Shown here one piece after another: positions 37,667-40,880 of a stretch of DNA of 64,000 nt (the stretch's first letter is position 1; every line of letters starts with the position of its first letter). Position numbers and translations under genes: made by a program. Source of the stretch: Dehalococcoidia bacterium (GTDB lineage: Bacteria; Chloroflexota; Dehalococcoidia; Plut-88900). Where the stretch lies: positions 1,856,001 to 1,920,000 of the forward strand of contig CBDBLV010000005.1 in the NCBI GenBank assembly GCA_965207225.1. Direction: 5' to 3'. The notes below the pieces were generated by a model that saw nothing but the letters and a program-made list of their open reading frames with translations, was not told the DNA's origin and made no database searches.

Positions 37667-38572
37667 CTAAAGGATCCGCTCGTACCAGACGGTCACGGCC
37701 TGTCTCCTGAATCCACCGGCACGATAGATCCTGTGCGCGCTCGGGTTGAGGCTGTCGACGGTGAGGTCGATGCGGGAAGCGCCCGAATCTCTCAGGTACT
37801 GGACGCCGGCCCGCATTATCGAGGTGCCGAGGCCCTTGCCCCGGTATTCGGGGTGGGCACCCATCATTCCTATCCAGCCCTGGGTGCTCTTTTCACTGCG
37901 TTCCAGCCGGGTCCAATTGAAGCCGATGGTGTTGTCGCCGTCCAGTACGAGAAGGATGTCGTTGAAGGAGAAGAGGCCCATGCGGACCTTGTAATAGATG
38001 TCCTCGGGGCGGTTGGGGCTGTAGCCCCAGTGTTTGGCGAAGGAGAGGTTCTGGATGAAGCGGAGCCGGTCTTCGTCGCCTTCACAGAAGTGGCGGAGCT
38101 GGAAGCCTTCGTAGAGGTCGGGGTTGGGGACGGACGTGGGGTCGTTGAGCTTCATCTCCCAGAACTTGCGGATGAATCGGAAGCCGCAGCGCCTGGCAAG
38201 TCTTCGTGCGTTGAGTGCTGCGTATGGAACGGCCATCTGGATGATTTCGTAGCCGAGGTCGGATGCCCGATCAGCCGATGCTTCGACGAGTCGGGTGCCG
38301 GCGCCCTGGCGAAGGTGGTCGGGGTGGACGGCTCCTTCGAGGACGACGCGTTTCAAGGGCGGCTCGAGGTTGGCGATGAGGTAGCCGATGGGAGAGTCGC
38401 CATCGAGGGCGAGGAATACGTCACGCTCCGGGTCGATGGTGGGTTGACCTAGCCAGACGGAGAGGTTGTCGAGTGAACGGCCGGCCCACCAACCCTTGTC
38501 GCCGTGGATGGAGTTTGTGAGAGACCAGAGGCGGTCCAGGTCTGAGTGTTGGTAGCTTTTGACGGTGATTAT
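37667..38572 (-). CDS. MshD-like tandem-GNAT acetyltransferase, ATA start
   Basis: Two GNAT motifs (VHPDHLRQGAG; HPEYRGKGLG), SFAKHWG, GFNWT; frame open 72 codons upstream of the ORF-track TTG to an ATA 8 nt after TAAGGAGG, giving 301 aa. Confidence 0.75.
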   Translation of the reverse strand: MITVKSYQHSDLDRLWSLTNSIHGDKGWWAGRSLDNLSVWLGQPTIDPERDVFLALDGDSPIGYLIANLEPPLKRVVLEGAVHPDHLRQGAGTRLVEASADRASDLGYEIIQMAVPYAALNARRLARRCGFRFIRKFWEMKLNDPTSVPNPDLYEGFQLRHFCEGDEDRLRFIQNLSFAKHWGYSPNRPEDIYYKVRMGLFSFNDILLVLDGDNTIGFNWTRLERSEKSTQGWIGMMGAHPEYRGKGLGTSIMRAGVQYLRDSGASRIDLTVDSLNPSAHRIYRAGGFRRQAVTVWYERIL

Positions 38573-38710
38573 GGTATGGGCCTCCTTATGTGATTTGACG
38601 CTGGATGTGTAATTCTCAGGTTACATATTGGGGGGTGGAGGGGCAAGGGGTTGGCTCCGTCGATAGGCCGGAGGAATACGGGGTCGTTGTCCAGTTGTGG
38701 GGGTGGGGTT

Positions 38711-38854
38711 TTGATTGAACGTTGATTGAACTCGTAGCTGGTTTGATTGAACGATGCCTAGAGGGATTTCTGGGGATTTCGCGTGTCGCTGGGGGCAAGG
38801 AAGATGGGCGAGTTTTTGATTGTTTTGCGGTTTCAGGCACGGCTTTGATTGTTT
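38711..38854. repeat. Phased TTGATTG repeats
   Basis: TTGATTGAAC at 38711, 38722, 38743; TTTGATTGTTT at about 38815 and 38844. Confidence 0.7.
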
Positions 38855-38866
38855 AAGGAACACGGA

Positions 38867-38994
38867 GGGAACCCTCACCCCCTTTATCCCCCTCTCCCTT
38901 AGGGCCTTTAAGGGAGAGGGGGAAGGAAAAACAGAGGGAGCAGTTGGCGCGCCTGCGCCAACTGCTCCCTCTAGTTTCAATACTGGGGGAGGAA
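38867..38994. repeat. Double-hairpin repeat, copy 1
   Basis: 15-bp stem 38887-38923 plus 18-bp stem 38933-38972; direct repeat of 40345-40471. Confidence 0.85.
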
Positions 38995-39478
38995 AGGAGG
39001 GATTCTTGACCGGAGTCGGGGACGACAGAGAGGGGCGCCTCAGTCTCAGAAGAAGGAAGGGAACGCTCACCCCCTTGGTCCCCCTCTCCCCCTCGAGGGG
39101 CTCGGGGCAGGCGCTTCCCTCTAGTTTGGTACTGGGGAGCGGGGAGGGGGCACCACCCCAGATTCCTCGCGGGGCATCGGAATGACAGTGTGAGGGGTGT
39201 TGGTTTGTGATTACAATCCCACACGCTGGGGAGGGGATCACCCTCACCCCAGCCCTCTCCCCTCGAGGGAGAGGGGGTAGGACTCCTCCCCTCGACTCCG
39301 CCCGTGGGGTGGATTCTAGATCGGGGGCGGGAGTGACAGTGTAAGAGTCGGGGCGGAGGGAGAGGGGGAGGGGGAGGGGGTGGAAGGTCCCGGACGGTTT
39401 GCGCAGGATGTCGGCGACGCCTGTTCCGATGCGGGGTGTCCGCCCCCGGGGACGGTCCACACCAGCGTCGATTCTGCG

Positions 39479-39802
39479 ACAGCCCCACACTTCCGATAGG
39501 ATGTGGACGAGACGCGAGATATTCTCGCTCTGGGGCAGCCTCGTCCACCGGAAGCGCTCTAGCACCCCAAGGGGTGAGAGCATGGACCCGTGACCGCCGT
39601 TCATAGACCGGAACTTGCCGATGGTGACGACGGTGGAATCACAGCCCCATACTTCCGAGAGGATGTGGACGAGACACGAGAAAATCCCGCTCTGGGGCAG
39701 TCTCGCCCACTGGAAGTGCTCTAGCACCCCAAGGGGTGAGAGCGAGGACCCGTGACCGGCGTTCGTAGACCGGAACTTACCGGTGGTGACGACGGTGGAA
39801 TC
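39479..39802 (-). ncRNA. Two tandem 162-nt structured modules (candidate ncRNA)
   Basis: Exact 162-bp period, 16 substitutions, no indels; stems retained with G-U pairs on the minus strand; potential pseudoknot. Confidence 0.5.
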
Positions 39803-40278
39803 CATAAACGGTCTGTTTGTTTTGAGTCGGGCAACCTCCGACTGCTCGGATTGGCCGGCAAGGTGTATGCCGGGGAAGTCCAAGAAGGGCGCTATGGCCC
39901 GATGGAGCAACATTACACCGTGCTCCTTAGCGTCGCCTGACGGGGCGAAACCGTTGCGCCCAGAGAGTGGGGCGCGCACTTGGCAGCTCATAGAGAGGGC
40001 ATGCCGTGATTTGTCCGGGAACCTTCCTTGCAGGGGGCGGGACAGTGATTGATCGCTGCGAAGGCCGAGGCGTTGGGCCTTTGGGCAGCGCTTGTAGTGG
40101 GTGTTGGGGTGCAGGACGGTAAAGGGAAAGGGAGTGGGGCTGAGGCGCGTGCCGGGGGCCGGGCGGCGGAATGCTGTTCGGCTGAGACGGGGCCTATGTA
40201 GGCCGGTGCGGCTCATGGGACTCCTTTGGTCCTGCATTGTGATGGGCGCCGAGGTGTGAGGTCGGCGGCCTGGAGTGT

Positions 40279-40307
40279 AGTATAGCACGGAGGTTCAGGT
40301 AGGGCAA
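40279..40307 (-). promoter_or_regulatory. sigma70 promoter firing into the structured locus
   Basis: Minus strand TTGCCC-17 nt-TATACT with extended -10 TG. Confidence 0.7.
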
Positions 40308-40344
40308 ATGTCCAATTTCAGGGGGATGCCCTTCGGCCCCACAG

Positions 40345-40471
40345 GGGAACCCTCACCCCCTTGATCCCCCTCTCCCTTAGGGCCTTTAAGGGAGAGGGGG
40401 AGAGAAGAACAGAGGGCTACGTGGGTGCTGCGCACCCACGTAGCCCTCTAGTTCAGTACTGGGAGAGGAAG
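40345..40471. repeat. Double-hairpin repeat, copy 2
   Basis: Same 15-bp first stem as copy 1; 18-bp second stem 40411-40449 with different inner sequence. Confidence 0.85.
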
Positions 40472-40499
40472 GGGGAAGGAGGTAAAGGGTATGAGTGGG

Positions 40500-40880
40500 C
40501 AAATCCTAGATCCCTCGAGGGGCATCGGAATGGGATGGGAGAAGGGGGGTGGCCGTAGACTGAGGTGGAATATTGGCGGGGCGAGGGCCACGCTCCGCTC
40601 ATACTTCGAGTGGCCTCAGCATGAGTGGCCCTGCCCCAAGGCGACCCGCCGGTCGCCCCTACGGGAACCCAACCCCACTCCGCGGGATGGATTCCCGATC
40701 GCAGTTGGGAATGATGGTGTAGAAGGGGATGGATTCACGCAAGGGACATACGCCCATGTGCATCTTCGACATCTTCGGCCCGATCGGGGTCGGGGATGAC
40801 GGGATAGGGTGGGTGGATATGAAGTGGGCGTGTGGTCGGTCTACGCCTCAGATTCCTCGCGGGGCATCGGAATGGGATAG
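40500..40880. repeat. Cluster of mixed REP-like palindromes
   Basis: AGAT(T/C)CCTCG..GGGGCATCGGAATG (also near 39160), CTCATACTTCGAG..CCTCAGCA.GAG (also near 48677), GGATTCCCGATC..GGGAATG (also near 42558). Confidence 0.7.

Follow-up and report, generated by a model that had tools for sequence, protein, structure and literature searches.

A probable novel superfamily of terminase-derived structured RNAs in a genus of Dehalococcoidia

The stretch of DNA analyzed here (the window) is 64,000 nt long and comes from a Dehalococcoidia bacterium, the genome of which is available as a 4.03-Mb assembly of 5 contigs with 92% completeness. Tandem Repeats Finder reported an array in the window at positions 39479-39802 (period 162, 2.0 copies, 90% matches, 0% indels, score 536), which is a tandem repeat far beyond chance. 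A preliminary description, made from the letters alone, had counted 16 substitutions and no indel between the two 162-nt copies, and a direct comparison reproduced this count. Similarly, minus-strand frame 0 was found to be the sole stop-free frame across both copies. As described earlier, the copies differ in this frame by 12 nonsynonymous and 4 synonymous changes, and we note that 11 residues differ via the 12 nucleotide changes. A TR/VR pair of a diversity-generating retroelement was considered and rejected, since the 16 differences are of mixed types and not adenine-specific, and no reverse transcriptase is present in the window region. Four reverse transcriptase genes are found elsewhere in this genome; they are not linked to the element.

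The repeat lies within a longer element, as homology among close copies spans positions ~39370-40631 of the window, well past the repeat. The features of this element, which we call type A, are listed in Table 1. It begins with a shared stretch, the 5′ module, in which an extended -10 promoter is followed by a hairpin, a purine-rich AAGGAG stretch, and the ATG start of an Arg-rich peptide. The same promoter-like layout is present in three other loci (L002, L004, and L005), and GTGCTATAMT is a frequent -10 context in this genome. The open reading frame starting from the ATG does not have a fixed end; in different copies, it runs 730-990 nt into unrelated REP sequence. In the window, its first in-frame stop, at 38621, lies beyond the terminator-like hairpin, and a terminator-like 19-bp hairpin with a T-run precedes the first in-frame stop in 4/4 copies examined. 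Judged by its sequence, the hairpin downstream of the domain is likely the 3′ end of the transcript. If this hairpin works as a terminator, the type A message would be without a stop codon. The neighbors in the window are a GNAT-like and a deacetylase-like open reading frame, and no constant neighboring gene was found across the element copies.

Table 1. Positions of the element's features in the window
Feature	Position	Strand	Remark
Terminator-like REP hairpin, 19-bp stem, T-rich tail	40410..40450	-	Just upstream of the promoter-like site
Promoter-like site TTGCCC-17-TATACT with TG (extended -10)	40279..40307	-	Sole such site in 38400-40700
5′ UTR hairpin of the 5′ module, GGCCGCCGA...TCGGCGCCC	40244..40270	-	Pairing variants between families, by eye
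AAAGGAG-N5-ATG, Shine-Dalgarno-like sequence and start codon	40214..40227	-	ATG begins at 40216
Open reading frame from the ATG	38621..40216	-	Crosses the RNA domain, then unrelated REP sequence
Long-range closing helix P1, 5′ strand, GGAAGGUUCCCGGAC	40013..40027	-	
Whole structured domain, type A doublet form	39382..40027	-	Colinear with terminase-like residues ~205-365
78-nt homologue of the GIDLAGESE region in the terminase-like gene	39803..39880	-	Ancestral
Unit copy, 5′ in the RNA	39641..39802	-	54 codons, DSTVV...VWGC
Unit copy, 3′ in the RNA	39479..39640	-	
Long-range closing helix P1, 3′ strand, GUCCGGGACCUUCC	39382..39395	-	
Terminator-like hairpin, 19-bp stem then TTTTT	38932..38973	-	Downstream of the domain

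The doublet occurs at 4 loci of its own genome with 93-100% identity. A fifth locus has a single unit, and two other single units, which are distant, show 71% and 67% identity. The element carries 1, 2, or 3 units in tandem, and many copies are single-unit. Among 14 doublets, the closest match of every unit lies at another locus (92-99% identity, vs. 83-94% with its own partner), and in G000, G005, and G008, it is often the same-position unit of another doublet. Thus, the duplication predates the spread of the doublet within G000, G005, and G008. Matches to the 945-nt element were obtained in 9 of 31 genomes, comprising its own genome and 8/8 others of the same genus, with 0/22 from other genera. 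The unit, earlier put forward as a candidate novel RNA, does have homologues, as it recurs in 8/8 other same-genus genomes searched. A covariance model of the unit, applied to 121 genomes of the class, gave matches in 6 of them: its own genome, 4/4 of the genus, and one marginal case (E 0.0099). The relatives bearing the element are uncultured Dehalococcoidia MAGs.

In its own genome, the 5′ module is also joined to two more downstream families, B and C. According to the covariance model, type B carries a diverged unit. A blastn and tblastn search of this genome for a parent gene of the type B/C cargo returned other element copies only. The covariance model also uncovered another family, type D, of which the window's own genome has 7 copies and two relatives have others. 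Furthermore, two loci of this genome are chimeras, in which the 5′ module is followed by a well-preserved terminase-like piece; the orthologous sites in two relatives hold ordinary type A.

Copies of the element are present or absent between species. Four sites filled in relatives are empty in the window's own genome, and three of these hold only 27-160 bp of intergenic DNA. An orthologous locus can have two units in one species and only one in another, and there are signs of gene conversion among copies. When filled and empty sites were compared, the flanking intergenic DNA was too diverged to place boundaries, TIRs, or target duplications. At an orthologous locus of two species, the element is 87.5% identical, whereas the flanks are 93.5-96.8% identical. 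The overall rate of divergence is, therefore, approximately that of neutral DNA.

The origin of the unit is seen in an intact paralogue (L006:649-2037, 462 aa), which contains a single instance of the 54-residue unit and aligns colinearly with ~160 residues of the window element. Thus, the repeat unit is a piece of terminase-like coding sequence in sense orientation. L006 itself has weak matches to PHROG terminase large subunits (E 1.5e-4 and 7.8e-4; PHROG 5713/5909) and no Pfam match of its own. Its database homologues number >3330, and some of them carry PF17289 (Terminase_6C, the terminase RNase H-like nuclease domain). The terminase-like gene is present in 65/101 Dehalococcoidia genomes searched and in 49/81 genera; it is mostly single-copy, with 2-4 or more copies in the window's genus. 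Although the whole domain, including the unit, is a sense-strand, colinear homologue of L006 and thereby resembles the PF17289 terminase large subunit, the window copy is devoid of the ATPase domain and of the C-terminal third of the nuclease domain. It also shows neither residue constraint nor a predicted fold, and its open reading frame matched 0 Pfam families and 0 PHROGs. The window element is a derivative of the terminase family and not a member of it. Some copies have additionally lost the 78-nt GIDLAGESE segment by a deletion between GGAYTCC direct repeats.

The residues encoded by the element vary freely. For 45 element units, frame 0 gave a dN/dS of 0.81 and the shifted frames gave 0.73 and 0.81; for the units of real genes and chimeras, dN/dS was 0.16-0.17. 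Variable columns by codon position numbered 12/13/30 in real genes and chimeras, as against 32/36/29 in the 45 element units. Over the whole open reading frame, these numbers were 165/181/170 of 254 each for 27 type A copies. In 30-codon windows of the same 27 type A reading frames, dN/dS ranged from 0.58 to 1.23 in frame 0 with no consistent gap to the shifted frames. AlphaFold2, run on the type A open reading frame with 36 sequences, gave no confident fold (pLDDT 39.8, pTM 0.14). Since dN/dS is alike in all frames, codon periodicity is lacking, and pLDDT is low, the identity of the residues is not under selection.

The reading frame behaves differently from the residues. In 28/31 type A copies and 2/2 chimeras, an uninterrupted frame leads from the start codon into the units in phase; the exceptions are L003 and L016, which are out of frame, and L024, which is without a recognizable start. 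The distance from the start to the unit takes 17 distinct values between 324 and 537 nt in type A, all of them multiples of 3. This spacing survives the 78-nt deletion, an 18-nt duplication, REP-like insertions, and indels of 3, 6, and 12 nt. No stop occurs in 29 open reading frames of 235-353 codons. On the tree, 4 stop-creating events were counted in frame 0 vs. 17.3 expected, while frames 1 and 2 had 43 vs. 38.9 and 43 vs. 43.7 expected, respectively; the four events in frame 0 may be reconstruction artefacts, as the stops occur in no extant copy. A weak coding signal is seen in the first 31 codons, where dN/dS between families was 0.44-0.80 in frame 0 vs. 0.74-2.7 in the shifted frames. 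Conservation of the frame means that translation matters, which a reading of the element as pure RNA does not predict. The earlier reading, which saw no protein-level selection, is, thus, correct for the identity of the residues, which is free, but fails for the reading frame, which is kept open. No frame is open across the type D core.

Most of the stems that had been read by eye in the two copies are legible in the sequence and recur in the consensus folds, namely, ACTTCCG/CGGAAG, GTGGACGAGAC/GYCTCGYCCAC, the inner GCGAGA/TCTCGC, GCTCT-CACCCC/GGGGTG-AGAGC, and the GCCCCA/TGGGGC pairing; the GTTC/GAAC hairpin does not recur. The GCCCCA and TGGGGC strands, which had been proposed to form a pseudoknot, are both invariant across unit copies. 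In the whole-domain fold, GGGGCUGU pairs with an upstream GCGCCCC instead of its pseudoknot partner.

For the 45 element units read on the minus strand, RNAalifold predicted 41 pairs with -39.5 kcal/mol. Canonical cells accounted for 99.1% of 1842 vs. 97.1 ± 0.2 in shuffles (0/500 reached the observed value), although this and the other pairing figures are flattered, as the consensus structures were predicted from the same alignments and then scored. Compensatory pairs numbered 6, a value equalled by 2/500 shuffles; the covariation tests here, including those on the whole domain, are shuffle-based and not corrected for phylogeny. When the partners were slid by 1-3 columns, pairing dropped to 42-50%. 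On the plus strand, the consensus of the 45 units has 26 pairs with -28.1 kcal/mol. The minus-strand pairs are only 87.8% canonical when placed on the plus strand because 214 G-U cells become A-C. The strand asymmetry noticed between the two copies in the preliminary description, therefore, extends to 45 copies. Furthermore, 55 tree events in paired columns keep the pairing and 11 break it, vs. a ratio of ~1:1 in the slid controls. Paired columns underwent 0.91 changes per column and unpaired columns 3.07, making the former 3.4 times slower. For single-unit folds, z-scores on the minus strand are modest, ranging from -0.4 to -3.9, and some units of real genes reach -2.0; these predicted values alone are no argument for structure.

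The units are embedded in a larger domain, which is closed by a 14-bp long-range helix (P1) enclosing ~650 nt. P1 is part of the MFE structure of the window domain and of its centroid structure, and the folding z-score of this domain is -7.9 (minus strand) vs. -3.6 (plus strand). The length of the domain is about 650 nt in the window doublet and 410-520 nt in single-unit copies. An alignment of 11 single-unit elements from 8 genomes gave a consensus of 131 pairs in 24 helices. In this set of 11, canonical cells (96.2% vs. 94.6 ± 0.2 in shuffles), compensatory pairs (14 vs. 5.4 ± 1.6), and further pair types (44 vs. 38.6) all exceeded the shuffles, with 0/500 in each case; in the slid controls, pairing fell to 36-45% and compensatory pairs to 1-4. 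Several helices, P1 among them, do not vary and hence carry no information on covariation. Overall, compensatory and wobble changes occur beyond the controls, and they do so on one strand. These observations bear out the earlier claim that RNA structure is kept and not protein, insofar as selection preserves minus-strand pairing and leaves the amino acid sequence free.

Type D folds with 88 pairs, among them those of a perfect 15-bp P1. Its conservation far exceeds that of the flanking DNA, and it varies too little to reveal covariation. The same P1 complementarity is found in the real terminase-like genes of this genus, with a duplex of -32.6 kcal/mol. A search for P1 in the terminase-like genes of other genera gave no pattern, with duplexes of -10 to -33 kcal. 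As the complementarity in real genes is confined to the window's genus, it may have originated by chance before the copying. A search of Rfam 15 with the window region, type B, type D, and L006 gave nothing at or above the gathering threshold, in agreement with the earlier impression that the unit belongs to no recognized family. The sub-threshold matches were miRNA-like and fell on REP hairpins, with none on the units, type D, or L006.

Considering these results, we regard the repeat as probably a duplicated sub-domain of a terminase-derived structured RNA domain, situated on the minus strand within a type A element that forms its own promoter-to-terminator unit. A segment from the middle of the terminase-like gene would have been copied in sense orientation to become a dispersed, genus-specific element, in which the old terminase frame was fused to a new Shine-Dalgarno-ATG module. 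The two 162-nt modules would have arisen by internal duplication of one three-helix sub-domain, and selection would then have kept the pairing, including G-U wobbles that exist on the minus strand only. From its sequence signals, the element appears to be transcribed and translated, and we infer that the RNA is functional. As the frame is kept open and fused to the Shine-Dalgarno-ATG, ribosomes most likely traverse the RNA while the polypeptide is unimportant. Type D keeps the fold without an open reading frame, suggesting that selection acts on the RNA. The type A RNA may still be translated into an irrelevant peptide, and translation may have been lost in type D. Taken as a whole, the element and its relatives are probably best described as a novel terminase-derived structured RNA superfamily.

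Other explanations deserve consideration. The element could be a decaying selfish or passively amplified pseudogene fragment, spread by recombination between REP-like repeats, in which the pairing reflects ancestry and GC-rich palindromes. The near-neutral divergence at the orthologous locus, the presence or absence of copies between species with empty sites, the gene conversion, the variable unit number, and the lack of a constant neighbor all fit such an origin, and this mobility-like pattern together with the near-neutral divergence keeps the selfish-repeat reading alive. We nevertheless consider it unlikely. A neutral relic would have gathered frameshifts and stops, whereas the promoter, the Shine-Dalgarno-ATG, and the frame are conserved across 9 genomes. 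It would also not account for the 55:11 excess of pairing-keeping events over ~1:1 controls, the 3.4 times slower paired columns, the 14 compensatory pairs that beat 500/500 shuffles, or the strand asymmetry of 99.1% vs. 87.8%. A fast-evolving protein-coding family would be another explanation. Its product would be disordered and basic, with many Arg residues at the N-terminus and a degenerate piece of the terminase nuclease domain, and the hairpins would be incidental to a GC-rich mRNA. The Shine-Dalgarno-ATG, the frame kept in 28/31 type A copies, the avoidance of stops in frame 0 only, the lower frame-0 dN/dS in the first 31 codons, and the 337 related proteins predicted by gene callers are all in its favor. 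Such a family is quite improbable, however, given that dN/dS is equal across frames without codon periodicity and that the open reading frame has no defined stop and passes the terminator-like hairpin in 4/4 examined copies. Its product shows a pLDDT of 39.8 and no Pfam or PHROG matches, the compensatory changes hit nonsynonymous sites, and type D has the fold without the open reading frame.

The preliminary description had favored free-standing tandem RNAs, each 162-nt module being an autonomous structured RNA such as an aptamer, a ribozyme, or a guide scaffold. Each unit is indeed a self-contained three-helix fold with conserved pairing, and the number of units varies from 1 to 3. Yet there is one promoter per element, and the units are internal duplicates lying inside the P1-closed domain along with other conserved helices. 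In addition, single-unit copies are common, the open reading frame continues through the units in phase, and neither an adjacent partner gene nor a regulated downstream gene is seen, so this part of the description is not upheld and autonomous modules are very unlikely. Similarly doubtful to a high degree is the idea that the hairpins act in single-stranded DNA, for instance as recognition sites of a transposase or rolling-circle enzyme that mobilizes the element; single-stranded DNA tolerates G-T wobbles as well. Strand-specific pairing, presence/absence polymorphism, and the abundance of REP-like palindromes in the genome speak for such sites. However, no Y1 transposase (PF01797, IS200/RAYT) was found in a search of the element's own genome, which is 92% complete, and neither TIRs nor target duplications are definable in the diverged intergenic DNA. 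The conserved promoter, Shine-Dalgarno-ATG, and open frame would also be left unexplained.

If the terminase-derived RNA is indeed the selected product, its role is a matter of speculation; it might act as a trans-acting RNA or as a decoy that mimics the fold in the terminase-like mRNA of the genus. We favor a role as a decoy for the terminase-like system or as its partner because the real genes of the genus carry the same closing helix. A more specific version, which we consider highly improbable, is that the RNA is a partner of the terminase-like ATPase-nuclease conserved across Dehalococcoidia. It would have arisen in the mRNA of this protein in the window's genus and been released as the stand-alone types A, B, and D, which would work with or titrate the protein. 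They would be analogous to a pRNA-like or omega-RNA-like cofactor of an RNase H-fold packaging nuclease, or to an RNA decoy regulating a domesticated, GTA-like packaging system. The packaging RNA of phi29 (pRNA) would be a functional analogue in being a structured RNA tied to a DNA-packaging ATPase system, but the element has neither sequence nor Rfam similarity to it.

The HEARO and OMEGA RNAs (associated with IscB and TnpB) are large, multicopy bacterial noncoding RNAs, the functions of which are unknown or were recently found. Like them, the element is a structured RNA of several hundred nucleotides with many dispersed copies per genome and a narrow taxonomic range, and it is related to a sequence that overlaps an RNase H-fold nuclease gene. 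In contrast to them, the element has no Rfam match, no IscB or TnpB is among the neighbors listed, no variable guide segment was identified, and type A carries an open frame. The tandem direct repeats of a pseudoknot-capable RNA module are reminiscent of ToxI, the RNA of type III toxin-antitoxin systems, which consists of tandem repeats. However, the units here measure 162 nt, number 1-3, and are embedded in a larger domain with an open reading frame; judged from the neighboring open reading frames, which are GNAT-like and deacetylase-like, no ToxN-like endoribonuclease is among the neighbors. Correia elements are intergenic repeats of the REP/MITE type with promoters and hairpins, and the element resembles these repeats in being dispersed, intergenic, present or absent between relatives, promoter-bearing, and hairpin-rich. 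It differs from them in that it is derived from an internal gene fragment rather than from IS ends, is much longer, has a complex multi-helix fold backed by compensatory changes, and has no definable TIR or TSD.

Few bacterial RNAs are large, structured, and without an assigned function, and several of these have led to new biochemistry. A literature search, covering titles and the beginnings of abstracts, returned nothing on such an RNA or on terminase-like genes in Dehalococcoidia. The element offers a traceable birth of a multicopy RNA from a phage-derived coding segment, in which the fold is selected and the encoded residues are not. As real genes, chimeras, types A and B with an open reading frame, and type D without one coexist, they constitute a natural series from coding sequence to structured noncoding RNA. 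It is unusual for a kept reading frame to be combined with unconstrained residues and a possible non-stop message. The finding also draws attention to a terminase-like gene with conservation across most Dehalococcoidia. A second copy of this gene in the window's own genome lies at C5:241269-242663, and the open reading frame downstream of it looks portal-like by eye.

Two loci of the window's own genome (G000) are chimeras, in which the 5′ module common to the element families, comprising an extended -10 promoter, a hairpin, an SD-ATG and an Arg-rich peptide start, is joined to a well-preserved terminase-like piece. Compared with real genes, this piece shows a dN/dS of 0.16-0.17 in both chimeras. 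The orthologous loci in two relatives, G007 and G008, hold ordinary type A elements, the dispersed, terminase-derived elements that carry one to three 162-nt units. Since the relatives differ in this way, the sequences suggest recent recombination or gene conversion at the chimeric loci. Neither present-day terminase-like gene of G000 was the donor of the terminase-like piece.

The terminase-large-subunit-like gene was present in 65 of the 101 Dehalococcoidia genomes searched, mostly as a single copy, with 2-4 or more copies in the genus of the window. A 431-aa ORF (C5:239473-240768), portal-like by eye, comes next after the copy on contig C5. Together, the gene and this ORF may represent a domesticated phage or GTA-like module.

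Types B and C are additional element families that likewise carry the 5′ module, from promoter and hairpin to SD-ATG and Arg-rich N-terminus, but with different sequence downstream. Type B contains a diverged unit, scoring ~52 bits with the covariance model built on the 162-nt units. The extended -10-like motif, GTGCTATA(A/C/T)(T/C), occurs genome-wide (for example at 45 listed sites); it lies upstream of many ordinary ORFs and not of elements alone. Type D, also found in G005 and G007, is a very strongly conserved, RNA-like core of ~345 nt without an ORF. It is closed by a perfect helix of 15 bp and has a promoter-like motif of its own; in the G007 copies, a hairpin of 26 nt is inserted in addition.

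Features in G000, by contig and position (type D copies are loci L075-L081)
Feature	Position	Locus
Chimera	C5:1616975-1617674	L007
Chimera	C4:456207-456913	
Terminase-like gene	C1:233687-235075	L006:649-2037
Terminase-like gene, second copy	C5:241269-242663	
Type B	C5:1004870	
Type B	C2:179327	
Type B	C5:1190356	
Type B	C3:256159	
Type B	C5:1736909	
Type B	C3:167685	
Type B	C5:1331075	
Type C	C4:589166	
Type C	C5:1626054	
Type C	C4:63381	
Type D	C3:141647-141819	
Type D	C5:701391-701563	
Type D	C5:67977-68146	
Type D	C5:528622-528791	
Type D	C4:508762-508933	
Type D	C4:373523-373692	
Type D	C5:1035608-1035779	
Reverse transcriptase	C2:158087-158773	
Reverse transcriptase	C5:1548409-1549095	
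Reverse transcriptase	C5:1671488-1672288	
Reverse transcriptase	C5:1553608-1554405	
~1-kb sequence	C4:457680-458727	
~1-kb sequence	C4:503777-504822	
~1-kb sequence	C1:39109-40134	
~1-kb sequence	C5:1204032-1205056	

REP-like palindromes form dense arrays throughout the genome, in the window at 38860-39340 and 40340-40460; examples are GGGAGAGGGGGATCAAGGGGGTGAGGGTTCCCC and, with a T-run behind it, TAGAGGG...CCCTCTG. Palindromes of the latter kind score as intrinsic terminators and give spurious, sub-threshold miRNA matches in Rfam. REP-like insertions were found within the type A ORF at three loci (L032, L035 and L024), that in L032 adding 87 nt with the frame intact.

Besides, G000 has four reverse-transcriptase (PF00078) genes, two being identical 586-aa copies, and a multicopy ~1-kb sequence, possibly an insertion sequence, with ~83% identity to the flank of locus L037 in G008.
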